A stretch of 64,000 nt of DNA from Psammoneis japonica (GCA_008632985.1 QPGO01000123.1:124001-188000); one strand, 5' to 3'; positions 18,342-64,000 are shown, counted from the first letter of the stretch. Notes: a model not told the origin generated them from the letters alone. Translations and numbers: made by a program.

Positions 18342-18388
18342 CTTGTGGTCGAGCGGCTCGGTCGACACCTCCGGGCGGGTGGGCAGGA

Positions 18389-19800: not shown

Positions 19801-19812
19801 ATCACCAACGGG

Positions 19813-21972: not shown

Positions 21973-22193
21973 GTCGGTGCCCCCACATCGTCACAGTTGT
22001 TTCTGTGTCTCTCCAGGGCAACCACCCCTTGACTGATCATGTCTTCGCGTCTCTCACGCGGGTGCCGTTCCACCGCACAGAGTGGGTTCTCCAGTCGCTG
22101 CAGGTGCCAAACCCCGCCCTCAGAGAGATCCGGCGGCGTCCATTTGAATTCACCATGACCCGCATCATCCGACCCATTCTCCGATTCCTGGGG

Positions 22194-23330
22194 TCAAGCT
22201 GAGATGGGCTCGTTAGGTTTTGCAAGCCGGAGGGTGGGCCATCGTTCCGATTCCGGTTCCAACGTGAAGCTCCTTCCCACATGCTCCCAGTGGAACACGC
22301 TTGTGGTCGATCCAGCATCCATGCGGGCCTCAGGGATGTGCCAGTCCTTGGGAACTCCCAGTCCTCGCCCAAGCTCCTCCTGAGTGAGATGTCGAACCCG
22401 CTTGGCAGCACGAATCCAGGCCCCCGCCTTTGCAGGCATGGGCTCTGTTGCCGCTTCATGGATCCGGGCCCCGCGTGGGATCTCACCTTTCACACGTCGG
22501 ACGAGGCCCTTGGGCATGAGTGGGTTGCTCACAGCCCGGGGTCAGGTGCCTCTGTGCAGCGCATCCCAGGTCCAGCGAGTCGCACACGGCTTGGCTGCTC
22601 GTGCGACTGGGAGCCGGCTCTGGTCGATGGCGCCACCCACTTCGGCCACCGCTGCTCGCCGGAACCAAGATTCATAACCCAGCCTTGCCCAGCATGTGCG
22701 GGCGGCTTTTCCCGTGGGTCCGTTTTCCCAGGTGATTGCATGTGCTTGCCAGCTCTCTAAGACTACCTTCGGGCAAGAGTCTGGGGTGGTGGTGTCCACT
22801 GGTTCTTCCCAACGTTCAGCACAAGGCAGTTTCCTTGGTGTGTGGATAAACCCCCACTCCACCACCAGCAAGTCCACTGGATTCTGCGCCAAGAGGCGCG
22901 TCTTGACCCTGGGGCCGGTGACTGTCACCACCGCATCTGACTTGGGTCCAACGGGATTGCCTTGCCGGCGGACACACAGCTTCTGCTCCAGCCTTGGCCA
23001 CGCGACCTTCATGGTCTCAGCACCACACTCGAAGGTGCCGCACGACTTGATCCACGCAAGTGCTTCCCTGGGTGGAGGCACACTCTGCATCTCCATTCCC
23101 TCTACAGTCGGGTCCTCAACATCCTGGACACTCTCAGTGTGGACACCTCGAGGTCTGGTTCCATCGTCGCTTGTTTCCAGGGCTGACGGACAGTGGATCC
23201 AGTCGCGCCCGGCTCCCAGCAATCCCTCCTCCAGTGCCATCGTGTGGGATCTGTCCACCGCGATTACAAGAGTCCGCACACCAATCGTAAGCTTGCCCAG
23301 TGTGCAGGAGGTTAAGCAGGGAGTGAGCAA
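22194..23330 (-). pseudogene. Degenerate C5 cytosine-methyltransferase-like domain upstream of RT
   Basis: Ordered motif-like blocks FECGAETM (I), VDLLVVEWG (IV), PKVVLESW (VI), LGYES..GGAIDQSR (VIII), RHLTQEELGRGLGVPKDW (IX), TSVFHWEHVG (X); in-frame TGA at 22542. Confidence 0.55.
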
Positions 23331-25948: not shown

Positions 25949-25992
25949 GGCGTTGTAGCCGTCAGGTAGACAGCAGTCCAGTTCCCCCCTGC

Positions 25993-26276
25993 AAAAAGAA
26001 AATTTTTTGCACTGTCTAGCGTGTCAGCTCGTTGGTGCTCCAAATTGTGAGCTGTTGTGAACTGTTGGCGGCGAAGCCAATCTTCGTGTCTTTTTCCAAA
26101 TCCTGGTGTTGAAAATCAACGTGGGGCCACTTGATTGTTCGCATTAGCAGCGTTCCCATTGAGGTCGAGTGCCCGAGATCACTTTTTAATCCAACACCTA
26201 GTCCGGATCTGTCGAAGAACATCCGTTCTCAATTCGTCGTTTGTCCGAGAACCTGTCAATTAGGGCAAGTGATGAG
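25993..26276 (-). repeat. Split direct repeat A1 (5' terminus of element)
   Basis: Aligns with 18389-18671 and retains more TA/CG. Confidence 0.92.
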
Positions 26277-29768: not shown

Positions 29769-30227
29769 GGGAATGATGTTGAAGCTGCTTTCACAGCACG
29801 CACCCCACGTCAAACAGATTCTGTCTCGCCTGTCCAAGATCCAAGCGATCGATCTTCAATCTCAACTCATCAAAAATCACATTAAGCACAAGAAGTGGAA
29901 GCATTTAATGCTGGCTAGCAGCAGCCATCATGCAGCATCTATTTTAGGTATGAACACCCCCTCACTCGAGCGAGCGAGGAGAATGAATTCAGAATCATCT
30001 CAGTGGCAGTGGCGATCTGTCTGTACGATGGTTTCTACGTACGCATGTTTTGTACTGTCCTCCGTCCGTGCCACCTCCAGCCCGATTCCCGTACCAATTA
30101 CAGACCTCCCAAGCCGGGAGTGCCCGATTCAAGACACGATTCAGAAATTCAGACGAGTAGCGACGAGCGACGACACGACACGACACACGACACAACACAC
30201 AACACATAAAATAAAATTGTACATACA

Positions 30228-32102: not shown

Positions 32103-32279
32103 TCTGTAGTCGCAGCCACTTTTGAGAGCAACAAATGATATTTTAGAATAAAATGAAGAGTGCATCTAGACTAGAAACCCCGTTGATTTCTTTTATTGAC
32201 CGGATGTAGTGGGCAATTTTATGCGCGACTTAGTGTGAACGCAGATTATTTGAAGATAAGGTTACAAGTTCTGTCTCCC

Positions 32280-33578
32280 ATGAGAAGTTGGTTGCTGCTT
32301 TCAGGCAATGGATTCAAGATGCAGAAGTGACCAGGGTGCACCAAGCCATGTTTCTTCCCAACAAGCACTGAAACACCTTTGAACCAGCCAAACCCTCTGG
32401 TGTCAGTTGCGCCCTTTGCCCCTGGTCACCACAATCCTTGGCTCCACCCACAGATTTCTTCAAAAAGAATTTTCCACTTGATCCCTTTGAGCTGGTGGTG
32501 CCATGGCCCTTTTGTGTGCTCATGTCAATGCTGACATCATTCACCTCATGGGGTGTTGCTCTCAGTGAAATGCTCCATTGCCTTCGTGTCCAAGCTGGTC
32601 ATGTCATGCAAAATTGTTGTCCCAAATGCTCTCCAGGGGCAGGCTTGAAAGTGCAAGGCTGGGAGAATTTTAAAACAAATTGGGGAGTCTCCCAGACAAA
32701 AAAGGCCGGGGCCCAGGTTTGGGGGAGTGCTGCAGCACTGGCCTCTCTGCTCTCCTCCCAAACAACAAAAAATGCCCTGCAAGACTCTTTCCTCTCTCAA
32801 TGTGCTCTCCCCAGTGTCACTGGCCCACCTTTTGTCTTCCACAAAGTTGTCCAGGAGCTGGTGCTTGGCTGGCTCCTGGTGGGTGGTCTGGAGCTTGAGC
32901 TCTGAAAATGGACCTCGTCTGTGCCAACAGGTGTTTGGAGCTGGTGCCTCCTGCGTGTGCTGTTTGAAATGACAGCACCAGCCACCACAGAATGGGGAAG
33001 ATGATGCAAGGGCTGTTGATCAGCTCAAGTTTGTTCCCACCATGGACAGAGGTCTCAAGCCTGTCTGCACCAGAGACCACTCAACACAACCAAGGCTTGC
33101 GGCCATTCTTTGTCATTGTTGCAACAAGAACAACGTTGTGAACAGAAGAAGAGTTTTCTTGAAGGATCCTCCCGCTTGCCCCAGGAGCTGGCAAGAATGC
33201 TCAGCTGGCTCCCAGTGAGCAGTCTGGAGCTCAAGCTCTGCAACTGCCACCAACTGTTTGGAGCTGGAGTCAGCTGTGCTGTTCCTTGAAGTGGCGGTGG
33301 CCGCAATCTCTCCTCCCACGCTGTTGGGGCACATCAGTGCTGCCGTAGTTGTGGATTGAGTGCACGGACTGTTGCGATGATTTTGCCACATTGCGTGCAT
33401 GCATGCATGCCGGCAGGGCCCCACATCAACCCAACCATCAACCCCATGACATGACAAGCACAACAACAGAAGCAGTGCCTGCCACTGGCAGAAGCAGCAG
33501 AATTGACGAGGAGAAGAGCACTGTGGGAGGCGCCTTGATGACGCATGGTTTCAATCATGACGAAAATGACAACGATGA
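32280..33578. other. TpA/CpG-depleted relic adjoining the Copia 3' LTR
   Basis: TA nearly absent; includes the mutated left part of the segmental duplication. Confidence 0.75.
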
Positions 33579-33583
33579 GCTTT

Positions 33584-33985
33584 TGTGGGCACACGGCAGT
33601 TTACGCCGCAGAGATGGAAATGGTGGCAACAGACAACTTAGGAGGTGTGAATTGACCAGTCGCTAAATTGTGAGAACAAAAACTGCTCCACTCGACAACC
33701 AACAAGAATTTGTAAAGAACGAGAAGTGACCCACATTTGCGCTGAACTCAATGCAGATGAACACAGTGAAAAGACTTGGCAGGAATGAGAAGTTCTTGAT
33801 TGCACAAAAGAAAAGAAGAAGCGGGGCTCAATTCTTGATTTGAACCCAAGACCTCCGATCTCATTCGTTTCTCGAGCTGTGATTGGGTGAGTCGTTGATG
33901 GTGGTTGATGGCGGTTTCTGAGCGGTCATTGTCACACGCAGGACTTGATGGCACACTGATGCTTGAACATGTGTGTGTTCTCACA
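33584..33985 (-). repeat. 3' LTR (402 bp, heavily TpA-mutated)
   Basis: Aligns end to end with 39009-39413. Confidence 0.95.
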
Positions 33986-33992
33986 CTCCCTC
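33986..33992 (-). other. Polypurine tract GAGGGAG
   Basis: Immediately precedes the 3' LTR on the minus strand. Confidence 0.75.
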
Positions 33993-34012
33993 ACACCGAA
34001 ATGTCCAAGTTG

Positions 34013-37000
34013 TTGCCATCCCTGAAGCAAAAGACGATGGCGAGTGAATGTCGACAGGTCCGGCATTTTTGTCAGGAAGTCAGCCTGTTGGAGTTTGGTT
34101 CCAATGGCTTCTTCAATGAGCCTGGCAGAGAGGGCTGGAAGCTCCCTGGTGGTCACCACTTTCTTTGGTGTTCCATCCTCATTGACAAGTCCCAGATCAA
34201 CAAGAATGCTGTTGATGAGGTGAGGTTGGGCCAAGTGACATCGATCCTTCTCCCTCTGAATCTTGACTCCAAGGCATTCGTCAATGGTTCCTTCGTCCTC
34301 CACATCGAATGTGGTTTGCATCAACTTGATGACCTTGTCAATTTTTGCCGCAGACTCTTTGTCAAAGACAAGACAATCATCTGTGTAGACCAGGAGGACT
34401 GTGGTTCCTCTGTGGAAGACGCATTCATCGAACTCCGATGGAACAAAACCGAGTTGCAACAAACCGGCATGGAGATGTTTGCACCAGGTTCGTCCACTGT
34501 CATGTCTGCCGCAGATGTTCTTCTCAATGCAGAGACAAAATTTGTTGCGATCAATGCCAGGAAATGTCACTCCCTCAGGTGGCTCCATGAAGGTCGGTCG
34601 TGGAATGTCCACTTGTGGATGCGCAAGGACGAAATCAACTTGTCTTGAATGCCATCCATGCATGACACACAGATGCAGAAACAGACGGATCGTTGTCCAG
34701 GACAAAGCTGGTGCATGAGTCTGGTCACAGTGCTTTCCGGGAATCTGCTTGTGCCCTCCAAGATCAAGTCGACTCTTCCACTTGTAGACTTCTCGTGTGT
34801 GAATTCGGCGCTTGCGCTTCATTGACCACACTGCTGGCAGGATCGTCTCACGTCGGGTGCATCGGATTTCTCGCATGGTTCCCAGTGATCACGAGCAGTG
34901 TGGTCTTGAATTTCCTTCACCATGGCCTCTTTGAACTGCTCTGCATCTGGCTGCTTCATCGCTTTGTGCATGCACATGGTGTCAGGATCAGCAGAGGCCT
35001 TCAAGGAGCAAGCAACAGGATCGTCAAGATCTGCTTGAAAATCTTGCTCTGAGTGCATGTCTTGGTCCAGTGCTTCGAAGTCGGCTCAACATGAGACAAC
35101 ATTGGCCTGCCGTTGCAGTTCCGACTCGATCATGCATTGTGTTGGCTGAACAGTGCATCCAGACCGTGTTGTTTGCACTGCTGGTGGAGGCTCTGGTTCG
35201 GGCACTTCGGATTCCGGCAGTGATTCTGGGGTCTCAGAGGCTCCCTCATTTGTTGCATTTGGCGCATCTTCTTCGTCTTCCACCAGTTCATCCGGTGCGG
35301 TCGCCTCCACAGGTGTTTTGGGGGTTGGCACCATGGTGTGCATTTGACGTGGTTCACGTGGTCTTGATGCGTGCCGCTGTTCCGGTCTTCTTGGTGATTC
35401 ATGGTTGAAGTTTTGAGTCTTGGAGAAAGTGGCAGATCTGCTGCCAGCGGGACTCAGTCGCACGTTGGGATTTGAGCGTTTCGATGATCATCAAATCTCA
35501 CGTGATGTTGTGGTGAGACCATCCCCGTGGCGAGATTTAGAACCAGAGCAACTGAACGAGAGTGTCTTGGTGATGGTCCAAGGTGTGGACCAACTCGAGA
35601 GCGAGGGTCCCACTTGGGCACAGCGTTGTTGGCTTGCAATTTGCTGTTTAAAATGTAGACTGGGCAGGCGAATGGATGAAAGTGCCAAATTTTGGGTTTC
35701 ACTGGTGCTTTTGAGAAAAGTTCAATCGGCAACACTTGCTGACCAGTTCTTGGCACACAGTTGCGCACAGCATTCGCGTGTCGAATGGCGCAGGGCCACA
35801 GAGCCACCTCTGCTGCTGCTGGCCATCGATGTTTAGCATGCATGAGTTGTGTGCAGGCTGAATCTTGGAGGTCGGGGATTCTTTTCTCGCAAATGCCGTT
35901 TTGAAAGTGTGCATTGACTCCACAGAAGGACATTGTTTGGTTTGCATCCTTCACTGCCTCAAGGCATGCATTGTCCGCGAAACGGCCATTGTCGGCATGA
36001 CAGTGACGAATGTGAACTCCGAGGGATCGGGAGCATGCTTCAAACGCGAGTTTCGCTGCCACTGTCTCAGCTCCAGTCAATGTTGTTTGTAAATAGACAA
36101 AAGAGAAGTCACTGCAGTGGTCAACGAATGCAGGGCGTGTCTGCAGCGTTTTGTTGTTGCCCAGCCTTTCAATTGGACCATTGGACCTGGTGTTGTCGCG
36201 TCGAGTTGGTCCACCGACACGCACTGACCAGGCTCAGCAGCTTTGAATGTTTTGTTTTGTTTGTTGTCCCCTTTGACTTTCCAAGGTACTTTTGTCGCTT
36301 TTCCGAATCGACAGGCAGCACATTGAGGGACATGGCATGTTGATGGACGACGAGGCAGGTCTCCACTGCAAGCCACAGCTTGCATGCGCGAAAATGGGAG
36401 ATGACCGAGTCGACAGTGCCAAAGCAGCAGTTCGTGGGATGGATTCGCAGGCGTGATGATCTCTTCATTTTCGATGAATCGTTCACCCTCTGAACCGTCC
36501 TCTGACAGGTTGAATTCGACTGCATAGGGTCAGACGGAGGTGTTGATTGATCCGCATGGATGGCTTCCTCGTTCGGGCTAGTTGCATCATCGGGCACTTC
36601 GTCAACCGGAACATGAGTCGGAACAGCAGGTTGCTTGGCATGATCCGAGACCCCGTCGGGCGGAGGAGCATGATTGTGAGCAACAGCAGCGTCGGGTGTG
36701 TCGTCGTCAGGCGGAATGAGGTGTGCTTGGAATGCACAAAAAATTTTGTCACGACGACAGTCGCATGTTTCACATGGCGCCTGAAGGGACGTAAAAGAAG
36801 GGGCGGAGCGAAAGACACCGACATTGCTTTTGTTGAGGGGGACCGACTGCGTGCATTTTTGGTCCATCCACTCTAAAATGATGCGGTTGCTTGTGGTTGT
36901 AGCACGAGTCCCTTCTTGGGTGCGCTCTTGTGGCTTGAGAGCTTGAGCCAGGTGTTGCGGAGACAGGAGCCGAATCGGGAGGTCGGGCACACAGCAGATG

Positions 37001-38919
37001 CCGGGTGCATTCAAGTCATGTGTTCATCCGAGGTCGTCTTGGATGGGCCAACACACAGTGCCTTTGCATGAGGTTGACACATTGCCGGATGCACCCTTGA
37101 CGTTGACATTGACCTTTGTTGGTGTCTGGATGAAGTCTGACATCAAGTTGGTTAGACAGCAGGAGGCGTGGTCATCGATGCCAACAAGGAATGAGTTGGC
37201 ATTGCAGCCATGGTCGTTGCAGGTTGAGCGCCGTTCCGCATCGGTGGTGGAGGAGCATCCGACAACCAGTTCATGGGTCACGTGGACCTCGATGACCTTG
37301 TGCATGACCGCGCACCATGTTTGCATCAGACACATCGTCGGCGGCAAGCAGAGCCTTGCTTGCACCGACTCTGGGGTCTTCGGACTCTGGGCTTGGGTTT
37401 GAGGTTGAGGTGGAAGGGCTTGGCTGAGTCAGACAAGGAGTGCAATGGATCACATGCACTGCTGATCACATTGGCTGCGATGGGAACTGCTTTCATCAGA
37501 ATGGTGTCCACAATGATTTCATCAGTGCAAGCCAAGATCGCGAATGGTGCAACAAGTGGTGTGGTGCAGATCATCTCCAAACCTGACCGCCACTTTCATT
37601 TGCCTTGGGCCTGTCCAGTCATGTCGTTGACACCGACATTCGCCATGGAAGCGGTGAGAGCATCGGACGTCGGCTGGTTTGGGTTGCCGGTGTTCCGGTT
37701 GTCCGCTTTCTGCTTGGCACGACAGCCCTTGCTCAAGTGCTGTCCCCAGCACTTGTGGAAGTCGCAATGCTTCCATTCTTCTCCTTCAAAGGTCTTCACT
37801 TTGGGTTCTCCGGGCTGAGGTTCGACGCTGCGCCAAGTCCATTTTCCTTCAAATTTTGGTTTTTCACCTTTCTTGCATTTGGTGGCGTTTGAGGACTTCT
37901 TGGCCTGGCTGGCGTTGGAAGGTTTCTGGCCCAATGACCGCTGGGGTGATCTGCGCAAGCGTTGGTTCCAGAGGTCGTTCACTTTGGCACGAAGAGTGAC
38001 AATTTGTGCTTGTTCCTCGGTTGGTTCGTTCCACTTTTCATTGAGGACGAGGGCTTGACATTTCTTCTCAGCGCGAATCATGAGTTGCTCATGGGCAATG
38101 TTGACTCCATCATCATAGTCGTCGTTGATTTTCTCCATGCACTTTGTGAAGTTCTTGTCTGCGCATGCTGCATGTCCCTTGAACAGGTTCGTGATGAGAT
38201 CGTTGGATGTCTCTCCTCAGCTTGACAGGGATTTAATCCTGTCCCTCACGTGCTCGTTGAATGCCTTGACATCGTGGTTGGCTGTGTTGACCATGTGCTT
38301 GTCCAAGGATGCGAGCTCGGAACGGACATGGGAGGCTGCAGCGCGAGTGTCAATCTCGGCCTTCGAGAGCAGAATTTTGAGGTGCAATGCCCCGCAATCT
38401 GTGTCTCCGACGCGATGCTGCTTGGATTCGTTGGCCATGACTTGCTTGGCAGCTTCATCCACCAGAGTTGTGAAGGCACAGGTGCAGCTGATGGTTGTTC
38501 TGGGTTTCACGATTCTGCCCGTTTATGTGGGCAGCGGACACCGTGTGGATCTGTTCCGGTGTGATGTTTCCGCAGGATGTGAGCATGTTCCGGTTTTCAG
38601 CAGTGGTGCCAGCTGCTCCCTCATTGATGTTGATCGTTAGGATGTCGTTCCAACCAAAAGCTTTGGACCTTGTACGAAGTTCATTGAGCAATGCGCGGAT
38701 GTCAGGCTTCTGGGTGTTGAACGTGGTCGGCAGAGGTTCAGCAGATGTCTTGAATGCGTCGGCATCGCCTCGGCGACTGTGGTCAAGCAGTGCATCATGG
38801 GCTAAGGCTGGTGAGCGAGCAAAGTTGCCTGCTGGAGGGTTGTTCTGGGCATCGATAAGAGGTTGGATGGCGGCCGGAATGGCTGCAGCAATCGCGGCTG
38901 CGATCTGTTCGGCGTTCAT
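34013..38919 (-). pseudogene. Copia gag-pol remnant with frameshifts, Tyr->His/Cys changes and an RT/RNase H deletion
   Basis: PR GIDDHASCC; IN VSVDQL, HCHADNGRF, QNGICEKRI; RT VDFVLAHPQ, KNICG, LVYTDD, ECLGV; ends QQADFLTK..LQGW. Confidence 0.9.
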
Positions 38920-38992
38920 GATGTCGTCGTTTCGGCGTCCACGACGTTGGGCTCTGGTTTCTGCAACAATTTTGAACTAAGTCAGGTCTCTA

Positions 38993-39008
38993 TAGCGCAG
39001 AGGAAGCA
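38993..39008 (-). other. Putative primer-binding site complementary to the D-arm of initiator tRNA-Met
   Basis: Plus strand reads TAGCGCAGAGGAAGCA directly beside the 5' LTR, resembling the conserved eukaryotic tRNA-iMet TRGCGCAGCGGAAGCG. Confidence 0.6.
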
Positions 39009-39413
39009 TGTGGGTATACGGTGGTTTATGCCGTAGAGATAGAAATGGCAACAACAGACAACTTCTTGGGAGGTGCGAACTGACCAGTCGCCAAATTGTG
39101 AGAACAAAAACTGCTCTGCTCGACAACCAACAAGAATTTGTAAAGATCGAGAAGTGACCCATGTTTGTACCAAACTCAATACAGATGAACGCAGTGAAAA
39201 GACTTAGCAGGAACGAGAAGTTCTTGATTGCATAAAAGAAAAGAAGAAGCGGGGCTCAATTCTTGATTTGAACCCAAGACCTCCGATCTCATTCGTTTCT
39301 CGAGCTGTGATTGGGTGAGTCGTTGATGGTGGTTGATGGCGGTTTCTGAGCGGTCATTGTCACACGTAGGACTTGATGGTATACTGATACATGAATATAT
39401 GTATATTCTCACA
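39009..39413 (-). repeat. 5' LTR (405 bp, TpA largely retained)
   Basis: Aligns with 33584-33985. Confidence 0.95.
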
Positions 39414-39418
39414 GCTTT

Positions 39419-43053: not shown

Positions 43054-43759
43054 GTTCTCTTTGGTGAAACCGTTTCATTCCTCAAGCTACTTATTCATCT
43101 GGATGTGGTTCTGTTTTCGGTTTCTTGGGACTCCCGGGTCGCGAGAGACCATGTTTCTGTGTTGGGACTAGTGGTGTTTGCAATCATGATGCTTTGCTTT
43201 CGTCAGCCATTGAAGCAGCTTTAGAGTAAACCTGAGAGGGATAACTACTAGATTTGTTATCCTTACGGTCATATCTGATCCCCAGCCTATATATCAATTG
43301 CTGTTGCGTTCTTTGTTAACCTATAAGCGCCGCTTCTGTTGCGTTCTTCGAGCTCATCGTGAAACCCCACACCTCCCTCCGACACGGAAGGAGAGGGTAC
43401 CGGTACCGTAGAGCAGAGCATGGGCGCCGCGTCTGCGAGCTGACGCGTTGCTGGCCACACGATTGTTCATATTAATTTTTTCGCATTCTGTCATTTTTTT
43501 TAAGTAAAACTACGTCATCACAAGCGACCAAAAGCGCTGCGGCTAACGGACAGAGCGATCTTCTTCCCACTTGCTCTGCTCTATGCTGGAGCAGCTGCTC
43601 TCTCTCTCTACTCTAGCCAGAGAGAGAGAGAGAGAGAGAGAGAGCTGGCTGGCTGGCTGGCAGAGACTCTCTGCTCTCCAGCAGAGGACCATCACACTGC
43701 CAGCAGTGGAGGGAGCAAACTGCACAATTTGCTGGAAAAAAGAGACAAAGGCCACAACA

Positions 43760-44190
43760 TTGTTGTCGACTTTGGTGCCACACACAACTGGGTTCTCTTG
43801 GGTGAAACCGTTTCATTCCTCAAGCTGCTTGTTCATCTGGATGTGGTTCTGTTTTTGGTTTCTTGGGACCCTTGAGTTGTGAGGGACAATGTTTCTGTGT
43901 TGGGACTGGTGGTGTTTTTGCACCAATGGTGCACACACTGCTTGCGCCAGCCACTGAAGCAGCTGTTTGGAGCAAACCTGAGTGGGACAACTGCCATTTG
44001 TTGTTCATGCAGTCATGTCAGATCATGTCAGTTGCTGTTGCATTCTTTGTCAACCTGTTGGTGCAGATTCTGTTGCGCTCTGTTCAACCTCATCATGAAC
44101 CCCCCCCCCCCCCGATGCCACAAGCGCATGGCGGTGGCAGTCCACGAGCTGACGACTCTGCTGGTCACACGAGCAGTTCAGACCAATTTT
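43760..44190 (+). repeat. Hypermutated duplicate of the 3' end and UTR of the 42520-43053 gene (source 43022-43480)
   Basis: Colinear alignment; stop TAG->TGG and all alignable TA converted. Confidence 0.9.
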
Positions 44191-45721
44191 GTTGCACTTT
44201 GTCATGATCAACTGAGTTGGAGTGACATCAATCAACCGTGCATGATGGAGCACAATTGTGCGTCGTCTTGTGCAAATAAATTCGGGCTTGCATTGAACTC
44301 CCAAGGTGGTGCCGTGAGCTCCAAAGCATGGAAAAAAGAGTGACAACAGCACACAGCAGCAGTGCATGCTGCAGCAGGAGCAGCTGGTGCCAGCCAAAGG
44401 TGCAAAATGGCAGCCTGAGACTTTGTGAAATGAGACAAACCCACCATGTGTGCACACACAGCTGACAAACAAGTGTGTTCTGAGTGTGGTCAGTTTTGCA
44501 GGAAACCCATCAAAAGAAAATGGTGGCCTGCTTCTTGCATTTTTTGCACCATGGACAACAAGGAGCACACCAGGCATGGCTTGCAGGGATGGTGACTTGT
44601 TCTCTGTGGGCAAAGTTCATGTGTGCTTTTGACACCTTTGTTGTGGGCCAACAAAGCACTTCTTGGCTCTCCTGCCTTCTTGTTTGCACCATGGCTGACT
44701 GCCCGCCCTCACACACATGCCCCTTTTTGCACAAAAACACAAATGTTTTGTGTTTTCTTCAACATTGCTGCTTTCGTTTTGTCAGCAGAGTGATCACATT
44801 GATGGTTCACAAGCAAAACAGACTGATGAAATTCTCAGCAACCAACAGCCAAAATGGCCATGGCTTCCAACAGCCACGACAGCCTGCTTTTTTCAACCTT
44901 TTGGAAAATTGAACTGAGCAATGAGGATTGCTTGCTGTGTCACGAAATGAAAACAATGAAAATGCTTGTGTCATGGGCTGCAGTGCAGCACAAGAAGACA
45001 AATCTGGCAGCAACAACAATTGGGCCTCATTTCACTCACCATTTGCCCCTGTCACAGAGCAAATTTACACACAAGAAGATTGACCACATTTTTGTGTGCA
45101 TGTGTGCAGCATCACAAATCACTCATTGGAAAACCAAGCTCTCATTTTGTGGCACAGTCAAGTGATCAATGACTTTGTCCATCCTCAGTTTCAAATGCAT
45201 GGGCACACACATGAGACCTTTTTGCATGCACCCACAACACATTTGAGTGTTGTTGTGTTTGACCATTTGAAATTGTGCCAAAAGTTTGGATGGCATGTTT
45301 CATGCAAAAAGGGGCATTTTTTCGTGCTTGTGCACACCTGAGTCTGGAGTGAGTCTGCAACCCCTCTGCATTTCATGCTGTCCAGTTTTTCAACACTGGC
45401 AGCTCATTTCACATCAAAAAACTTGTTCAAAACCTGGTTTGAGTGGGGAAACTGCCCTCTCCATTTGGCCACATCAACTGCAGCTGCTGCAAAGTGCAGT
45501 GAGAGCTTTCCAAAAAATTTTGCTGGAGAGAGAGAGAGAGAGTTTGAAACAAAGCAGTGGAATTTTTGACAAATGCCATGAGGTGGAGTGTCAATGGGAA
45601 TCATTCGAAAATGTCGCAAGAGTCACAATTGGCATTTCACATGAGGAAAAATGCCAAATCGTGCGGAAATGTACACAATGTCATGCAAGAGGGTGATTGG
45701 GGCCACTGACTTTTCGGGAAC

Positions 45722-45804
45722 TCAATTGAAATGTTGTCTGACCAAGGGTGTTTTGATTTAGATGGTGAAGAGCAACACCCTTGGTCAGACAACATTTCAA
45801 TTGA
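45722..45804. repeat. Perfect inverted repeat, 31-bp arms, 21-nt loop
   Basis: tcaattgaaatgttgtctgaccaagggtgtt / aacacccttggtcagacaacatttcaattga. Confidence 0.92.
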
Positions 45805-46721
45805 TTTCCCCCGAGGAGTTGACATTCGAGTGCGGATGGGTGTGCAGACTGACAACAAACATTTCTGGTGCTCTTCTACACAATTTCTACGCAATGACTC
45901 TGAGAGCCGAATGATTCCTGTTGCTGCCACAATCACCATGGTTGGCGCTGCAGCTGGAAGCCAGAAGAGTTGTTGCAGCTGCTCAAGCACGGCGACTGCA
46001 GCTGTCATGATGTCTTTGAGGGCCATTGTCATCATTCAAGACAGTGGAAGGTTCAGGGTGGTGGAGTCAAACAAAAAATCTGGTCTGGGGCCAGGCGAGA
46101 CAGACATTTCTGGGGGTGGGCTCGAGACGTGCACGAAGCGCCAAGAAAGCCTGCACTCATTTCAGCTGCAGCTTTGCACAAAAATTTGCATTTTGACCTG
46201 ATTTTGCCCCTCTCACATGCAGAACCCTTGCTTGTCAAGTTGGCAAGATGACAACATCATGTGATGTGCAGAACTCTGTGAGTGTCCCGAAGAGTGTGAC
46301 ACTTGTCAGAGCGTGGCCACATGCATGTTGCCCACACCCCTCTGTGTGTCTGTGTGCTTTCACATTTTTTGAAAATGAATGTCTCACTTGTTGGGGTTGT
46401 TGCTGATTTGTTTCAGGGATGGCAGCAGCATTCAGCATGTCCCCTCTCTAGCAGAGAGAGTGCAGCATTCACCAGAATCTACACAATGCTTCGATGCGAA
46501 GAAACCCGGAAAACAGAAGCACGATTCAGTGACGTCAGATCGTGATGAGGACCCTCTCTCTTCCGCCACGCACAATAAAAACACGCAACACCGCAACACC
46601 GTCATCCCTCATTCCCTCATCCTTTCAGGCATCACACGAGAAGCGACGGAAATGGCGGCGTGTGCTCTACAGAGTGTGTCAACGACAAGGTTAACGGTCA
46701 GTCTCTTCTTTTCTTTTTAAC

Positions 46722-48429: not shown

Positions 48430-50110
48430 TTGTGTGAGAGACAACAGATCAAAGAGAGCAATGATGTGTTTCACACCAACACTTACTTGAAGCGTTGCTG
48501 TGCGCGTGACAAGCCGAACTGGGAAAGTTCATCCATTTCGCAACACATGAACAAAACCTCCTCAGTTGATGCAAACACAAAGCGAAACTGCAAAAACTGC
48601 TGTGAGGTGACAGCAACAACACCTCAGATTTTTCTTTCTTCTTCCACCCGACAGGGCTCCAATGGAATCCATCGATCAAATCTCCTTTGTGCCATGACCA
48701 GGATTGTTGCAGGACCTGTCAGCAGCAACCTCATTGCTGTTCTCAGATGCAGCAAATGTGGCTCTTTTGATGAGACAGGCCCACCTGGCAATTTCATGCA
48801 TCGAGGCTGTCTTCGTGTCTTCTTCGCCAACCTGTGCCTGCACCCTGCTTTCGCAAATGTTTCCATCAAGCTTCCAGTGCCAACAAACAACACTGTCCTT
48901 AACTTTGGACTTGCATCAGAAGCTCCCAAGTGTCAGATCTGAAAAGAGATGACAGTGGTGTGGCGCGAGACATCCTTCGCTTTCTTTGTTGCACAAGCTC
49001 GCAACGATGCATCGCACCTGGTTGTCAAAAAAAAATGGCATCACCAGCATTGAGCAGAGCTGCCACTGGCACTGCAAAGCCAGACAAAGATGCTGCAAAA
49101 AGCAAAAACTGCTCTGCAATGACAACAGATTTCCAAAAACAAGCCAAAACATCAACTTTGCAACTGCAGCTGAAAGGAGAAGGGGGTGTGAGATGAGCAA
49201 ATCAGCTTTTGCAAACCAAGAAACTTTGCAAACACATGCCAGCCATGAAAGCAAGTGCTTTGGCAAAGAAAGCCCATCTGTTGCAAAAAAGCGCACCCCC
49301 CATTGAGCCCACTCTGTCAGCCAGCTGTGAAGTGGTGGTGTTTGTTGCTCAAAACTCTTCTTGTGGCTGTGCCAGCACATCTTGCGTGGGCAAATTCTCA
49401 GAAAGTTTGGCAGCTTTGTCTCACACTCATGAGGAAAAAAGTCACAGTGTTTGTCTCAGAGACAGTGGTCCAAAACACTTGAGTTTGGGCCATTGGTCAC
49501 TGATGGATTTTTTGACTCACCGGTTGAAACAAAAATTTCTGCCACCTTGCACGTGTGGTGGTCAGAGCAAGATTTCCAGAGACAGAGGACTTTCTGCAAG
49601 GTGTGCCTGACATGATTGGCTCCTCATCGACTGTGATTCCCTTGGGGGCTGAGCATTGGCCAGAGCTCAAGTGAGAGGTGTGCCGTCTTTTCAATCATGC
49701 ACAGTTTGTTGGTGGCCTGCTGTGATGGAGTCATGTGGGCATGGCATGCAAGAAAGTTTGCTTTGTGTGGTGCTCAAGTCACCCCATTTGCTGACATGTC
49801 TTTGCAACAATGACACAAATGCACCATCTTCTTCTTGATGGATGATTCTCCATGAAAAAGACTGCACTCAGAACAAACCTCAATGACATTGACTCTGTGC
49901 AAGGCAGTTCCAACACTCATTGGCATTGGTTGTCTCTTTTGTTTCAATGGAGTTCTCGGTGTCTTAGAAGGCTGGAAGAAACAGAGTGCTTGTGTTTGCA
50001 ATGGCCAATGCCACGGCAATTTGGATTGCAATGCATCAAAGATTTTTGGGGCAACACAGCACAGCAACATCTTAAAGTTGACACAGCAAACCGTTTGTGA
50101 CTTAGTTCGA
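48430..50110. other. TpA/CpG-depleted hypermutated relic
   Basis: TA nearly absent over ~1.7 kb. Confidence 0.8.
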
Positions 50111-51807: not shown

Positions 51808-52079
51808 TGTTGATTTAGCTCTCTCGTGAAGAGTGCGAGACGAAACCCGATTCGTGAGTTTCGTCATGGTGAATGGTGAGACCTTCGAGCTTCGAGCAGT
51901 AATCGCAAAAAATGGCGATAAAAGTTTCGGTCATAAAATAGATATTCAAGGTTATATGAATTTTGCGAACTCCAAGATGATATAATATTCATATATAAAT
52001 ATATATTATTACATAATGTCAGACACAACATTGGCAAATATGCATTACCGTAAAAAAATCTGTCGTCGACATGCAGCAA

Positions 52080-52800
<721 letters not shown>

Positions 52801-53020
52801 GCAAAAAGGGCGCCCAACTGGCGGCAACCGAAATTTGAAGTTCCACGCGCGAAGAATCATCAAAATCGGCGCGACGGTGCCGCCGACGATTTGGATATGA
52901 CTGCATGAGAGACTGACTGACTCGTCGGCATTAAGCGACGCACTTGATTGTGACTATCTTGCGTTGTATGAAAACACCTTATGAAGATCGTGTCACAATG
53001 GCATTACAGCAGTAACAGTC

Positions 53021-56735: not shown

Positions 56736-57198
56736 CGAGAGGAAAAGTTTCTTGCCGTCAATAAAAAGTAAAAAGTTGACCGAGTGTTACAAACCAGAGT
56801 CAGACCAAAAGATTACATTCCTGTGGTGAGCAATGGAGTTGGGGCTTTTCAATAAGAGATTAGATGTGCGAAAGGTTGCTTCCAAAGAGAGAAGAAGAGA
56901 AAGTGAATGATAAGGATAGTGTTGTAGGGCCTTGTACAGCACGTTCAACGGTTGACCCCAGAGAAACGCATGCTCAATGCGCGAGGTGTGCGCGAGAAAA
57001 CCACAGTGATCGCCAAGCAACATGGACTTTGTGCCTTTCAAAATCTCGGTTGCTTTTGCGCGCAGCGCACAAACGCAGCGGAACTGAAAAAAATTCTCTG
57101 CCGAAGACTCACTCCGACATGACGGAGTGAACAGCAACAGGCACCGGCAATCCATACGGACCATCCGAAGCTCACTGTCGCTACATAGTCTTTATAAG

Positions 57199-60100
57199 AT
57201 GGGTGTACAACTAGGCTCTAAGCTCCTGCATATGCTGGGAGGCCTGACGTTTTCGCAAATTGTCTCGTTGTGCTGCAAGAGGGCGGAAGATGCATGCCGC
57301 GTGGGTTCGCCGGCTGTTGCTGCGGACATGTCGTGGCTTTGTCACAAACTCCGCAAAACCACCATTGCCAATACAAGAACTTGCACATCAGAATTTGCAT
57401 TGAAGTTCATTGGTGAAGGTTTCGTCTTCTACGTGGCGTTTGATCCAGATTGTCGCCATCATGTGAAAAAGGCCTCCATGCGGCGTGAATTCGATCGTCA
57501 GCATAGTGTGGCCGACTGCATCGGTGCGAAGACTAAACTGCTTCAGATCTCTCGTATTCTTTGTGAAGAAACATGTCAAAATGAAGGGGAGAAGCACATC
57601 TTGAAGAGTCAGCTTGAAGATTTGGAAAAAAGGGTCAAGAAAGCAGAAAAGGCTGGTGCAGAAGCTCAGCGGCACCCAGAAATTATTGACAGTGCGCGAA
57701 GAGCCATGGAGGATCTGGCAGTGTTACACCCTGGAAAGGTTGTGATTGTTGCAGGGAAGTTTCAGGCTGACAGTTATGTTCAACATCTGTTGACAGCCAA
57801 GACCGTAGATCTGGCCATTGGGAATGACACCGACTTCTCAATCATTTCTGGAGAGGCATGTTTGCAACTGTCAAGCTTCAGCATTGCTGTTAAACAAAAC
57901 AGACGCCGCAATGAAGCAGAAATTAAAGAAGGAATGGTTGCAACTGGGTCGAGTTGCACAATCCAAAACGTCCGTGGGCATCTTGGCAACGCCGTTGGGA
58001 ATTGCAGGGCCGCGGACCTCCCTTCACTTGATGGCATCACTGATCTCCGAACTCGTTGTTTGATTGCGGCATTGTTTGGAAACGACACTTTCCCAAAAGA
58101 ATTAAAGAGTCTGACATTCTTTAAAAACATGGGGCCGGCTGCAGTGCGTGACATGATCCATCGCATTGGTCGAGACGCTGATGGCAATGTTCCTTTTGAG
58201 GAACTGCTGTCGGAAGCCTTGGGTGCGGCAACCCGCAAGAAAGACGCGTTGAATGCAGCGGCACAGAAAGAAGGTGCATCAGATGCTGCAGTGCTCAAAC
58301 AGCAGCAGCACGCAAGACTGGTCGAACTGACACGACCAGTCTTGAAAGCTCTTGTGGAAGCGATGGCGCATGAGCCAGCGACAGTCGCTCAGTCTGGAGA
58401 AATGCTGTGCTCTGTTTGTCCACCAATCGGGCCAGCAGATCACTGCATTGAAGACTTTGTCAGTGGAGATGACATTGGACCAGTCACACGTGAATGTGAG
58501 CTTGGAACTTGTCCTGGCCCCTGTCCCTCTCACGGCCACATTCACATGACGGGAGAGGGCAACCGAGAGTGTGGAAAATGCGGAAAGACGTTTTGCCCAA
58601 TGTGTGCAGTTACAAACGAAGACGAATCTGGAAGCACCGACGTGGTGTGCATCCCTTGTCTTGGAGCCACAACAGATTCTGTAGATCCTGCATCCAAGTT
58701 GTCAGAGAATGCATTGCGGGAGGCGCTGAGCGACAAAATTGAAGTGCCGGCTGACGTGCCGATGGCGGATCTCCAGGAACTGTACGTTGGCATTGTGGAG
58801 GGCGACTCAATGGACTCTTTGGATTCAAAAATGTTGGAGCAAGTGCGGCATCCATTGTGCCACCCAAGAGCACTAGATTCGAATGAGAAAGTGTTGGATT
58901 TTGTGGCTGATTTTGACTTTCGAGATGGCGCTCGCTTTCTTCGTGATCGTGATCTCACCTGCATGCAGCGTTGTGGTGTCATGAACCTGTTGGCAGACCT
59001 TGTCACATTTGGGAAGAACGAAAGCTTGCCAAAGCATGCAGAGGTGCTACCATCGCTTGTCTCAAAATTCGCAAGCGAAGCAAGAGTCGACAGCGGAGAG
59101 CGTTTGATGAAGCGCTGCGTGCAACACGCTCTTGACCCGAAATCGCCATCAATGCTCCATGCACATGGCAGCACAACAGAGCACAATGGAGAAATGGGCC
59201 TCACAACACATGACAAAATATCACCATCGTTCAAGGATGGCATGCACGCCGCATCATCGGTGTTTGCTGCATCCGATTTGTTGGCCAATGGATGCGAGTG
59301 TAAAGCTGGAGCGGAAAATCAGTCAGTGGTGGCAGAGGTTGGCGGGACCAGCACCGATGATGCGGGAAAGCACGTGTGCGCACACTGCCTTCCGGTGCCG
59401 TGTGAGGTCACAATTCTTTTGATGGACGGTCTAGCAGAACACGCTCTTGTTGAGTTCTCGTCGTGTTTTGGCTGTCACGAGGAAAACAGCCTAGATGTTT
59501 CGGACAAAGAAAAATTGAGAATGTCTGTTCTAACGCTGATGGATGCCGCTAGTTTTAAGAGTGCCGATTCTCTCCAATCGAAGTCGCCACATGAGCTGCT
59601 GCAAGCATTCACGGTTGGCACAGAGAGGGGCAAGAACAAGCCACCCGACCCACCTGACCCTGAAAAGTTGGGCCCAATGCGGAACTTCAAAAGAGTTTCA
59701 CCAGAGGAAAAGGCAAAAACAGCATTGAAGATGAAAGAAGAAAAGACGGCAGCATCAACCACGAATGTGGCAAATGAATCGGACACCTTGCCCGAACCAG
59801 ATCATCTGACAATGTCGCGGCTGTGCCGCACCTTCGCCAAAGTTCTTGCTGACAACAAAAGCTTGGATGAGACAATGATTGTCGGGCATCGTTTGCTTGA
59901 CCTGCGTGCAAAGAAAGTTGGTGCAACTGATGCTGCTGTTTCTTTGGTGGATGCTGGGCTAAGGCCGAGGGTCAAACAACTGTTCCAAGCAGCAAGAACC
60001 CGTGTGGATCCATGAACAAAAGCAGCAGAGGCAAAAAGGAAACTCGCAGCAGAACATTCGGAGGAATCAGAGTTGCAACTGGAGGCGCAACCAAATGATG

Positions 60101-61797
60101 CAACGGAATCATCAAACAAAACAAAGCGTCGGGTGTCGAAACGCCCGGCATCAAAAAGCACCCGTCGCTGCTGCTGCCAAAACTGCAACAACAACATCAC
60201 CACTGGTTCCAAGATCACACCGCCTGTTCCTGCCAAACCACCGGTGGGAGCCAGTCGCAACAGATGGATGACGCACTTCAAGAAACGGTTTGGTCGACGT
60301 GAATTTCTGCAACGAATCGGTGCAGATGAAAACAACTCACGCAAAGATCTCAGGATCTGCCTCTGCCACCCAGCAGAAACGACCACAAAATCTTTCACCG
60401 TGACGACACCAGCATTGACACCAGTTTCGTCACCACAAGGCGGAGAAGACGAGTCGGACCATGAAAATGGCAAGTTAGAAAAAGGAGACGGTGCAGATGG
60501 GGAGAAAAAACAGACAGCATTTTCCAAACGCACTGCATTCAAAGGCCTGCCTGTTCCTTTGGGCGCCAAAAGTAACCGATCCGAGGCATCCCCTGCCACA
60601 ACTTCTAAAGGGGCAGGAGAAGTGCGACAAATGGTGTGCTTTGCCACTTTGGATCATAAAGTTGGAGAAGAGGCTGTGCGAAATGAGTGTCTTGCTGTGC
60701 AGCAACGCACGGAAATTGAGCCGGGTGAACGAACCAAAATGACAGAAGAGGTCCATCCATGTCTCCAGCAGTCCGCAGGACTAGACCAGCACATCAAGTC
60801 GCCACCAAAGAAGAAGAGAGCCACCGAAATGACTAAACCTTCAAAGGGCAAACCGTCGACTGCCACTGTTCCGCCTGCAGTTGATCCTCATTCCATTTCG
60901 ACCACTGACGTTCAAACTCGCTGTGGGTTTGGATCCTTGTTGTTGCTGCTTTGTTTCATTGCGGTTGTTTGCAATGGTGATGTTTCTGCAATGATGAAAA
61001 CAACAACAAGATTGAGTTGGTTTGAAGAATGGTTTTTTTTCTTTGAATTGCTTTGGGGGCGGTCTCTGCATCGCTGGGTAGATGCAGAGCGTACGTGCAA
61101 AATACACCACAAATGTCTTCAGAGAATGTTCGAACAAAAGCTTGCTCTTGTTAAGTTGGCAGCAAATCGGTGGCTGCGATGCGTTTGTCACGAGGAGGAC
61201 GTGTCCCTGCGCTCTGAGAAATGGAAGGAACGGCACAGAAACAAGCGTGTTGTAATGTGGGACAATGCAAATGTTGATCTGATGGGGAAGCCTACAGATG
61301 CAGATTTGCAGCGACTCACGCACTCACTTCATTGCGGCGGGAACATTGTCAAAGGCGGCATCTTTCTGCAACTTTGTGGGTGGCTTGGCGGCTGGGAGCT
61401 TTGGCTGGGAGCAGTGTCAGACTCAGACTGTTTAGAGAAAAGTGGGCTGATGCAGTGCCAAGAACAATTTCAAAAGATAGACCCAACCTCCACGCTGTCT
61501 TTCACAAACATCTTGGACAAGGGATGCCGGTGTGTTTTGGCCGCGTGGCGAGGAGGGGGGCAGCTGCTGCTTCAGCCATTCTTTGCTAAAAGTGGTCGAA
61601 AGTTTACCAGCCGTGAGGTCCTTTTGTCAGGTGCAGTTGCCAGTGACAGGTCGGGGAATGAGCGAGCGGTCAAGCAGATGAAAATGAGCAACTTGATTGC
61701 TGGCGGCATTCATCAAAAACAAGATCTGAACAATTTTGCTGATGTCTGGATTGCCTGGGGTTTCCAATGCAATTTCATGCATGAGCCAGTGCTTTAA
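57199..61797 (+). mobile_element. DNA transposon ORF (~1530 codons, one in-frame TGA at 60013): XPG/PIN-like nuclease, zinc finger, SWIM, THAP-like and ISL2EU/Harbinger-type DDE transposase
   Basis: MGV..ADMSW..VAFDP..QADS..GNDTDF..GNDTF; CECKAG..CAH; CCCQNC..W..ICLCH; MWDNAN..GAVSD..LDKGCR..RSGNERAV; ORFs 57127-60015 and 60073-61797 share a frame; termini not found. Confidence 0.8.
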
Positions 61798-61949
61798 AAC
61801 AACTGCAGCATTTTCACTTTACCTTGTAGAAGCTAGATGTTTTGTTTTGTCTTGTTGTTCTAGACTCCACTGTGTCGTTTCTGTTGTTTCGTGCGGGGCA
61901 TGCTGACAGCCAAGTAACCCGGAAAGCAACCGAGAAATTCGAAAGGCAC

Positions 61950-64000
61950 AAAGTCCATTGCACTCCCAACTGGGGTGTTCCTTCCCTGGCGAGACTGCGA
62001 ATGGCGCCTCCAAGGGAACGAGGGGGTGCCATGTGACGTCGCCCACCCAAAACTCTCCATCAACAGCATTCAGCTGAAAGCCAGTGCAATTGGGTTGTTG
62101 GTGCACACGTGTTGGAAAACAATGACAACCTTGAAAGAAAGGGGGTCACAAAAGCAAGCCATCATCTCTCAGCAGCGGCCACGCAAAAAACATTAAAACA
62201 GCAAGCTCAAGCTCATGGAAAGCTCATGCTGCTGCAGAGCCAATGACAAAAACAATGGCTTCATCACAGCACAAGCCAACAAAGGGTGCTGTCTGCCAGC
62301 ACGGGTTTGTTGCCAGCTTTTGAAGAGCTGCTCCTGCACACAGCCCTGTGGCAAAAAAAACAAGTCACAAAACAGCAGCGCCAGAGTGATCTCAGCATGG
62401 CACTGTGCCACATTGAAATGATGTTGCAAGCTTTGGAGTTGTTGGCACCAGGGAAGGTGGCACATGAGTTGTCAGCATTGGAGCAGCAGCATGGCAGGCA
62501 GGTGGCAGGTGGTGCATCAGTGCATCAGCAGGTGGCATTTGAGTGCAGCGGGTGGCACCTCAGCTTGTGGCGGCATTTGGAGCAGTCTTTGTTGGAGCAG
62601 CTGGCCAAAAGGTTTTTTGCAGTGAGGTGACAAGCTCCACTTCTTTGTCATCAACCATGCTCACCTCACTGGCAATGAGAAAGCTGTCTGAGCACTCATC
62701 CACTGCTGGCAGGGATGTGCTCCAGGCAGCCCAGGGTGGAGCTCTCTCTGATGTGGGTCTGCAGAGAGCTCTGTGTGTGAGCTCTGCAGTTCACACACTG
62801 GGCAATGAATGTGTTTGTTTTCAAAATTTGAACAAACAACCACTCAACATTTTGGTGACATTTGTGCATGCTGGCGCACCCTGCAGACACATCAAAGAGC
62901 TGCTTCATGCAAAAACTGTGCAAAAAGTTGTTGAATGGATTGCCCAACAACTGTGCTACAAACTGACACAAAATGCCACCAAAGTCATGCAAAAAAATGC
63001 ATGTGCACAATGCACAACCTGTGGTGCACATGAAACAAAAACTCAAACTTGATTTCACTCAGTGGAGTCGCACCTTTGCCCAGCAACAGTGGCGCTGGCT
63101 GGCCCACACTTCCGCACACCCTCCTGGGGGTGAAGCAGAAGCTCATGCAGTCAGCCGGTCAATGTGCCACTTTGCAGGGATGCACACCAGAGACCACTGG
63201 TTGAGATGAAGCTCTGCACAAGAATGAGGACATTGCTTTCTTTTGGAGAGAACACAAGCACCCAAACTGCCACAGCAAAGGATGGTCACGTTGTTTAGAA
63301 GAGGATTCAAAGTTGGCACAAACTCTGAGAAAAAAACCTTGCTTCCAAGGATGGGTCTTGTCTTTAACAAAGACTGGCCAAGTTCCACATTTGCATGTGA
63401 TGGAGCAAAAGCAAACAGCTCACTGCTTGCTGGCAAGTGTGGAAGAGGGGCCATTCAGGACTTCATGCAGGTGTTTGAAACAGGGAGCCTTGGCAACATG
63501 ATGAGAAGGATGTTGGAAGAAACATTGCTCTCACACAGAATTGACAGCAAATCTTGCACAGAAATGCTGATCCTTGCAGCAAATGGATGATTGTCCAGTG
63601 GCGCCAATGGTTTGTCCAAACAAACACACACAAGCACCACAGCAGGGACAGTGCTTTCACCACATGAAGTGAAGAAATTGAGCAGCCAGCAGGAGAAAAG
63701 GAAATTGTTGAGGGCTGATGGGTGTGGATGGAAGTTCATTGCATGGGAAACATTGTGGTTGTCAGTTGGTGTTTCTGAAGTGTGCAGAATTTGCACCAGA
63801 TCCTGCACAGAAAATGCGCCCAATCTGCAAAAAATTGCCAAATGAGTTGACAAGCATGCAAACCACAAGACATCAATGCCAGTCATTTTCCATTGGAAAG
63901 TGCTGCATTTCATCCTGAAATGAGGGGGCACCAATGTCAGAAGTGGCCAAAAGGGTTTCAGGGGACCCAGTGAAACACCATCTGAGAACACATGCAGGGG
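61950..64000. other. TpA/CpG-depleted hypermutated relic (runs off window end)
   Basis: Only a handful of TA in 2 kb, mostly TTAA/TTAG. Confidence 0.8.

Follow-up and report, generated by a model that had tools for sequence, protein, structure and literature searches.

Why should a long transposon reading frame that has stayed almost entirely open encode next to no tyrosine? This question is raised by positions 57,199 to 61,797 of a 64,000-nucleotide stretch of Psammoneis japonica DNA (GCA_008632985.1, QPGO01000123.1:124001-188000), which carry the transposase of a DDE-type DNA transposon. We refer to the whole 64-kb stretch as the window and count all positions from its first letter. Our analysis makes it very probable that the tyrosines were lost through DNA-level hypermutation of mobile DNA that is specific to the dinucleotide TpA and targeted to domains; this confidence does not extend to the enzyme involved. 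The changes are specific to TpA, have one direction, occur on both strands, arose in situ and end at sharp domain boundaries. The features at the centre of the question are these:

57022..61958, plus strand: DDE (DDE_Tnp_4 / PIF-Harbinger-type) DNA transposon, 4937 bp from terminal inverted repeat (TIR) to TIR
57088-61797, plus strand: transposase reading frame, 975 codons, TGA at 60013-60015, then 593 codons; one gene
57199..60012, plus strand: N-terminal transposase part, 938 codons long starting with the ATG at 57199, with only 3 remaining tyrosines
60013..60015, plus strand: single in-frame stop TGA, splitting the transposase gene
60016..61794, plus strand: C-terminal transposase part, 593 codons including the DDE domain, 0 tyrosines

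From the ATG at 57199 we counted 3 tyrosines in 1533 codons, all in the N-terminal half (P = 1e-16 at a tyrosine content of 3%; P = 7e-9 at 1.75%, the minimum among host genes). This agrees with the original prediction of three tyrosines in about 1530 codons. Over the whole frame from 57088, tyrosine makes up 4 of 1570 codons (0.25%), cysteine 3.8% and histidine 3.4%. The half described as a tyrosine-free 574 amino acids is indeed free of tyrosine, but its length is that of a 593-codon stop-to-stop frame. Likewise, the supposed two halves are one gene with a single TGA between them, although the tyrosine counts given for both were right. Eight host open reading frames (ORFs) in the window have 1.75-4.2% tyrosine and 30-60 TpA each, in line with the normal tyrosine content claimed for nearby host genes, and host ORFs of 416-630 codons run without interruption.

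A HMMER search with the 593-codon part returned 1154 relatives at E ≤ 0.001 (best E 4e-97). Median tyrosine content was 3.6% in the 150 DDE relatives listed, and the nine closest (46-60% identity) had 1.9-3.7%. For the C-terminal domain we aligned the 42 of these 150 that cover query residues 290-593 and set aside one, P0054, which left 41. The window copy was identical at 95 of 117 columns with at least 60% conservation, and the columns bearing D..D..E were among those retained. The seven conserved tyrosine columns read cysteine (five) or histidine (two), and the tyrosines replaced in the catalytic domain are conserved in 36-41 of the 41 relatives. LHCGGN (61327) and DKGCR (61516) occupy the positions of YY and DKGY in the relatives. 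The N-terminal part can be aligned along its length to relatives of 1446-1977 amino acids that terminate in the DDE domain. Over the full length, the comparison with the 11 long relatives gave identity at 205 of 275 conserved columns, and 14 conserved tyrosine columns read cysteine (8), histidine (5) or tyrosine (1).

A retrotransposon elsewhere in the window gave a similar result:

33584..39413, minus strand: Copia long terminal repeat (LTR) retrotransposon, with LTRs at 33584-33985 and 39009-39413 that are 90% identical

This element has a clear RVT_2 match (E 4.6e-28), and its named relatives are diatoms (Nitzschia inconspicua, Epithemia, Attheya and Aulacoseira). In an alignment with 60 of the 120 Copia relatives listed (those of at least 1100 amino acids), 339 of 412 conserved columns were identical; 20 conserved tyrosine columns read cysteine (10), histidine (5), phenylalanine (2) or tyrosine (3). 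Median tyrosine content in the 120 was 3.3%. The proposed tabulation of tyrosine replacements against homologues thus gave cysteine or histidine at 7/7 and 13/14 columns for the transposase and 15/20 for Copia, as predicted for TAY codons changed to TGY or CAY at TpA, and the medians above show that intact homologues do not share the deficit. All eight peptide strings quoted in the original prediction were found: besides the two above, HCHADNG (36005), LAHPQ (34627), NICG (34519), ECLG (34279), FFHQF (21570) and KHCGF (21126), these six on the minus strand.

The loss of tyrosine is one symptom of a wider loss of TpA. We delimited ten blocks, listed here without strand, which together span 29,115 bp:

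3900..4515: short TpA-free block, 0 TpA, 8 CpG; shares a 62-bp repeat with 63061-63121
5180..5735: short TpA-free block, 0 TpA, 12 CpG
8875..9945: unannotated block, 0 TpA in 1071 bp, 14 CpG
18850..25990: TpA-erased block inside a Ngaro-like element, 38 TpA in 7.1 kb
27610..29880: unannotated block, TpA- and CpG-poor, 7 TpA, 33 CpG
32270..38520: TpA-erased block of the Copia element, offset from the element
43615..46445: unannotated block, TpA- and CpG-poor, 6 TpA, 40 CpG
48490..49960: unannotated block, TpA- and CpG-poor, 1 TpA, 25 CpG
52055..52890: short TpA-free block, 0 TpA, 26 CpG
57930..64000: TpA-erased block, most of the DDE element and an adjoining repeat

The blocks contain 116 TpA (observed/expected ratio (o/e) 0.07), with o/e values of 0.54 for CpG, 1.58 for TpG, 1.64 for CpA and 1.24 for AA. 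The remaining 34,885 bp contain 1260 TpA (o/e 0.52), with 0.95 for CpG and 1.21 for both TpG and CpA. TpA counts per 500 bp drop from ~15-25 to 0-5 at sharp block edges, and TpA-free runs reach 1077 bp (P = 1.3e-17 at the background rate). All sequence contexts are reduced, with depletion ratios of 0.03 for TAT/ATA, 0.11 for TAC/GTA, 0.16 for TAG/CTA and 0.18 for TAA/TTA. As a separate observation, weak genome-wide action on the host DNA outside the blocks, given its TpA and TpG/CpA values, would be indistinguishable from ordinary TpA avoidance.

Annotated transposable elements lie in three of the ten blocks: the DDE transposon, the Copia element and the following retroelement.

18168..26276, minus strand: Ngaro/DIRS-like retroelement, with split direct repeats at 18168-18341, 18389-18671, 18671-18846 and 25993-26276

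The Ngaro-like element has 7 tyrosines in 1760 codons over five ORFs; its RVT_1 match is weak (E 5.8e-6) and under the Pfam cut-off. A Pfam search of 85 ORFs from the blocks found the known RVT_1 match, a few weak matches (E > 0.001) and one ankyrin match at a block edge; in this search the other seven blocks yielded no recognisable domain. The repeat at 61960-64000, beside the DDE element, has 4 TpA and 21 CpG in 2041 bp.

One could suppose that these lineages evolved without TpA by composition or selection, for instance to escape a nuclease that cuts TpA or UpA. Avoidance of UpA/TpA is widespread, and the host DNA falls below expectation even outside the blocks. We nevertheless consider this explanation extremely unlikely. 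Tyrosines of the catalytic domain that nearly all relatives conserve are replaced; the window transposase is under the Pfam threshold, with no match at E ≤ 0.01, and PF13359 (DDE_Tnp_4) was found in 5 of 6 relatives scanned; and paralogous copies in the window differ exactly at TpA. At the DNA level, 80 metagenome loci of relatives have a median TpA o/e of 0.65 and none is below 0.2. Two public relatives resemble the mutated copies. One is P0054, a protein-cluster representative (1 of 150) with 0.9% tyrosine, 9.7% cysteine plus histidine and CC in place of YY. The other is a metagenome locus (L043; 1 of 80, TpA o/e 0.28), in which TpA o/e is ~0.2-0.3 over 4.5 kb (500-5000) with sharp edges, again with CC for YY. 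Both look like further transposase relatives hit by the same process.

Comparison of paired copies revealed where and in what direction the change occurred. The Copia LTRs, identical at insertion, now hold 4 TpA (33584-33985) and 18 TpA (39009-39413), so the change took place in the chromosome after insertion. Between them there are 35 transitions and 2 transversions, and they show TA against CA at 9 sites, TA against TG at 8 and CA against TG at 5. In the Ngaro-like element the terminal repeat 18168-18341 was spared, with 14 TpA compared to 4 in its copy at 18671-18846 (16 transitions, 2 transversions). For a 360-bp repeat, the copy inside block 43615-46445 has 0 TpA and 4 CpG, and the one outside (43019-43377) has 18 and 16. 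Control paralogue pairs outside the blocks gave transition:transversion counts of 106:73 and 82:59. Pooled over four pairs, A>G had occurred at 45 of 100 A sites after T, corresponding to ~45 of 50 TpA steps, compared to 7/165 after A and 6/150 after G; C>T had occurred at 23/94 CpG sites. The less-mutated copy reads TA where its partner reads TG or CA.

A sequence of ~950 bp that exists twice (26390-27335 and 33446-33583 plus 39414-40239, 75-87% identity) provides an empty-site control, since its second copy was split by the Copia insertion. The 138-bp island left of the element (33446-33583) has lost both TpA and CpG in comparison with its paralogue at 26390-26528; the 826-bp piece to the right (39414-40239) is unmutated. 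The paralogy could not be extended left of 33446, where a transition-tolerant alignment gave nothing above shuffled scores. The Copia block leaves ~0.9 kb untouched at the element's 5' end, including the whole 5' LTR, and overruns the 3' LTR by 1.3 kb.

Both strands were hit about equally. In the DDE and Copia elements together, tyrosine became cysteine 18 times and histidine 10 times. A preference for A>G on the sense strand was considered and rejected: the raw TG/CA skew is of inconsistent sign (Ngaro +0.06, Copia -0.125, DDE +0.04) and within the range of the host genes (-0.19 to +0.13).

These comparisons bear directly on ADAR-like A-to-I editing of transcripts fixed by reverse transcription. 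Such editing would produce A>G beside a 5' U, the direction seen here, and retroelements account for two of the three elements annotated. However, a TIR-bounded DDE transposon is affected, the two LTRs of one element differ in TpA content, both strands are changed and an island outside the retroelements is hit; AA, moreover, is unaffected. We take the first four observations to exclude RNA editing fixed by reverse transcription, which retains only a vanishing probability. The claim that the lesion lies at the DNA level is thereby borne out, on more grounds than the DNA transposon for which it was first made.

An artefact of assembly or base calling, with long-read chemistry reporting G or C for a base that is modified at TpA in silent DNA, would also generate an apparent loss of TpA, and nanopore data do contain systematic miscalls at modified motifs. 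We examined three sequencing runs (X1, X2 and X3), which come from one sample, possibly the assembly's own source, and bear on read chemistry. In Logan k-mer contigs of X1, whose word depth is 49 for unique DNA and 100-640 for the elements, the TpA-free sequence recurs with 2-10 differences in every 300-500 bp, and exact 31-mers at depths like these imply that the reads are accurate. Of the window, X2 reaches 55.0-56.7 kb only, and X3 gave no match. Transitions account for 191 of 213 X1 variant places. Among 40 listed X1 and X2 variants, TG<>CA double changes number 4 of 21 in the element (0.8 kb) and 0 of 19 in host DNA (1.6 kb). These, like the five CA<>TG sites of the LTR pair, have the pattern expected when copies are hit independently at one ancestral TpA. 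An artefact would not consistently produce TG<>CA differences between copies at the same sites, and we regard it as highly improbable.

CpG is also reduced in many blocks. The three annotated elements keep a CpG o/e of ~0.6-0.8, and the unannotated blocks are mostly CpG-poor as well as TpA-poor, strongly so at 27610-29880, 43615-46445, 48490-49960, 61960-64000, 8875-9945 and 3900-4515. TpA loss seems to saturate well before CpG decay, and both end in TpG or CpA. Loss of both dinucleotides in the same domains would fit error-prone repair of the polymerase eta type at WA hotspots, with G written opposite T after repeated T:G mismatch repair in heavily methylated DNA; polymerase eta is known from the somatic-hypermutation literature for A>G preference at WA motifs. 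However, WA covers AA, where A>G was far rarer than after T, and AA is undepleted in the blocks. In addition, young elements are almost free of TpA at a time when most of their CpG is kept. This explanation is very unlikely.

The genetic code accounts for the open frames. Changing TA to TG or CA turns tyrosine into cysteine or histidine and removes TAA and TAG, and it cannot create a new in-frame stop except by TAA>TGA. TAA and TAG make up 155 of 1435 stop trinucleotides in the blocks compared to 1118 of 2505 elsewhere, which bears out the idea of missense with frames left open. This accounts both for the single TGA in the 1570 codons of the transposase and for the 26 frames of at least 100 amino acids that overlap 55-64 kb. 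The open frames in the blocks give no evidence of selection.

On this reading, hypermutation acts on the chromosome after insertion and converts TpA to TpG or CpA (A:T>G:C on either strand). Its action is confined to transposon and repeat domains, with tyrosine loss as a by-product, and elements are inactivated by missense as their own frames and spurious frames in all six phases remain open. Of the possible chemistries, the likeliest is deamination of adenine preceded by T, for which an ADAT/TadA-like enzyme or some other deaminase of nucleic acids would have to work on DNA. We give adenine deamination by such an enzyme a chance of about even or a little less.

TpA is self-complementary, so attack on A and attack on T are indistinguishable from sequence. 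The T of TpA could instead be modified, for example to 5-hydroxymethyluracil, and then be wrongly copied or repaired as C; a T>C change in one strand would give an identical pattern, and dinoflagellates preferentially modify thymine at TpA. On the other hand, no known thymine modification yields near-saturating, clean T>C, and repair through abasic sites should yield transversions too, which are nearly absent from the LTR pair. A thymine target is therefore improbable, if less so than the other alternatives above.

Literature searches on TpA-specific hypermutation found one paper, a 2026 preprint on Bigelowiella natans, and no second (bioRxiv 10.64898/2026.01.13.699255, Mettrop et al.). In the accessible text of that preprint, 231 of 302 nuclear mutations in mutation-accumulation lines fell in one integrated nucleocytoplasmic large DNA virus (NCLDV) region and one virophage region. 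A>G or T>C changes made up 230 of these 231, all 230 on TpA, at rates ~1000-fold above background in some lines only. The NCLDV region was single-copy and transcriptionally silent, and the lines were mitotic. The same text reports 324 TpA-poor coding sequences enriched in DDE endonuclease and reverse transcriptase domains. It proposes an ADAT2-like adenine deaminase, citing reports that ADAT2 enzymes from Trypanosoma and amphioxus work on DNA, and it makes no mention of diatoms, tyrosine or stop codons (bioRxiv 10.64898/2026.01.13.699255).

As far as the accessible preprint text goes, the two cases share almost exclusive A>G/T>C change on TpA, giving TpG or CpA by strand, and confinement to foreign or silent regions that carry a long-term TpA-poor, CpA- and TpG-rich footprint. 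In the window the paired elements likewise differ almost only by transitions and the A>G changes concentrate after T; host DNA is spared, with ten sharp blocks of which seven are without annotation, and host ORFs that keep their TpA. The cases also differ. Host TpA is 3.6% of dinucleotides in the window compared to 6.0% reported there, and the erased blocks are near saturation, compared to a Rho of 0.45 in the NCLDV region. The uninterrupted host ORFs and the diatom relatives of the Copia element, which make a diatom source probable, also set the window apart from B. natans; a SerRS-like host protein matched a single relative in the protein collection, at 30% identity, and protein-atlas searches with host proteins gave mixed or bacterial taxa. 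The window's targets are three transposable element classes and unannotated repeats, and its evidence is comparative (LTR and paralogue pairs), whereas that from B. natans consists of de novo mutations. The window adds tyrosine-to-cysteine/histidine change, loss of TAA and TAG, domains offset from element ends and CpG decay alongside. By analogy, the process in the window is probably of the same kind as that which hypermutates silent foreign DNA at TpA only in B. natans. This kind of process was described only in 2026, and the window comes from a further, independent lineage.

Repeat-induced point mutation (RIP), found in ascomycete fungi, is similar in that dinucleotide-specific transitions at the DNA level, on both strands, disable transposons in place and leak into neighbours. 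In contrast to the window, RIP changes C:G to T:A, mostly CpA to TpA, so that TpA is enriched and many stops arise; here GC rises and no stops appear. The RIP signature of TpA enrichment with CpA/TpG depletion is absent, as TpA o/e is 0.07, CpA and TpG are ~1.6 and the derived state is TG/CA. RIP targets duplicated DNA above a threshold of length and identity, at a premeiotic stage; the B. natans process, according to the accessible preprint text, affected a region present in single copy, and did so in mitotic lines. ADAR hyper-editing of double-stranded RNA from repeats and the ADAT2/3 (TadA-type) deaminases share the A>G outcome and the preference for a 5' U or T; they differ from the change in the window, which is in DNA, on both strands and near-absolutely dependent on a 5' T. 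Two further reports, as far as their accessible text goes, serve as leads only: DNMT4 enzymes related to fungal RID occur in many diatoms (PMC9998398), and deaminase-SAM-Tudor proteins are specific to stramenopiles (PMC3239186).

Several observations weigh against hypermutation of mobile DNA as the full account. The order of contexts, with TAT/ATA most and TAA/TAG least erased, is unlike ADAR or fungal TAD editing contexts. Block limits were drawn by hand from TpA gaps, which makes the in-block o/e of 0.07 partly circular; the run-length P value and the pair comparisons are free of this. Two repeat pairs of ~75% identity in the window are unaffected, and one LTR and one terminal repeat were largely spared. 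The CpG loss in older blocks shows a second process in the same domains. Finally, the only runs found come from one sample and are not independent biological support.

The unaffected repeat pairs and the spared LTR and terminal repeat indicate that the target is not simply repeats, nor is it simply the element. Those elements that were hit are multi-copy by depth, and 62.8-64 kb is too (250-640 compared to 49 in unique DNA, run X1), yet their spared repeats contrast with the short inter-element island that was hit. We infer that TpA hypermutation is regional and directed by a chromatin or silencing domain rather than being strictly repeat-induced; its aim would be the domain and not repeats as such. 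Independently of this, an inverted repeat at 41002-41594 and 42441-43053 (600 bp, 76% identity), overlapping an ORF at 42079-43050, has normal TpA and CpG and served as a control pair.

With a second lineage showing the TpA-only signature, what a preprint observed in a single species becomes a candidate for a general defence of algae against mobile DNA. From the comparisons of LTRs and paralogues it can be added that the change acts in place after insertion, reaches up to ~90% of TpA sites, occupies domains offset from element ends and proceeds faster than CpG decay. A broader proposal would be a TpA-directed defence across algae of the stramenopile, alveolate and rhizarian (SAR) group. It would reach beyond the one chlorarachniophyte B. 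natans, use a dedicated DNA-acting deaminase aimed by silencing chromatin or small RNA and not by repetition of the sequence, work quickly enough to saturate even a polymorphic insertion and be the source of tyrosine-free, cysteine/histidine-rich algal 'orphan' models. We advance it tentatively, leaning slightly towards doubt. In practice, gene finders will call the six-phase open frames of mutated elements as proteins, and such false models can be recognised by tyrosine below 1% with raised cysteine and histidine. Calculated over 1-kb windows, TpA o/e offers an easy way to screen for silenced foreign DNA. Any natural A:T>G:C editing enzyme with strict 5'-T specificity on duplex or transcribed DNA would be of interest for base editing.

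The DDE element itself may be a fairly recent insertion. Its TIRs (57022-57042 and 61938-61958) form a 21-nt inverted repeat at 95% identity, which a closer reading of the element ends extends to ~35 nt. About half of the TpA is kept in the first ~0.9 kb, and erasure is near-complete from ~57930. In one X1 contig 57020 is followed by 61956, the joint sharing three letters (CAT), and CAT is present at both element junctions. This joint suggests an empty-site allele and a 3-bp target duplication, as a hint from one contig with 27 letters on its shorter side. If the joint is real, the element, being saturated, is a polymorphic and hence fairly recent insertion. Over the adjacent host DNA (55176-56756) an X1 contig has 18 letters and 23 gap positions unlike the window in 1.6 kb.

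PF13359 at the C-terminus of the relatives and the TIRs are as in PIF/Harbinger-type (DDE_Tnp_4) elements, and so would be the CAT duplication if real. The window protein differs in being ~1570 amino acids in a single frame with a long N-terminal part, whereas classical Harbingers have a ~400-amino-acid transposase and a separate Myb-like ORF. The transposase begins MGVQLGSK, and its relative P0001 begins MGVKDGSK. The long N-terminal part of one of the six relatives scanned gave a weak XPG_I hint (E 0.035); on the basis of this single match, a 5'-nuclease-like N-terminal domain fused to DDE_Tnp_4 would be an unusual transposase architecture. The element may resemble the 'Academ' superfamily, on which a literature search gave nothing useful. 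Elsewhere, an ankyrin-repeat ORF at 27415-27858 on the minus strand (Ank_2, E 2.2e-6) spans the edge of a TpA-free block and could be either a host gene partly inside a mutated domain or a captured fragment.

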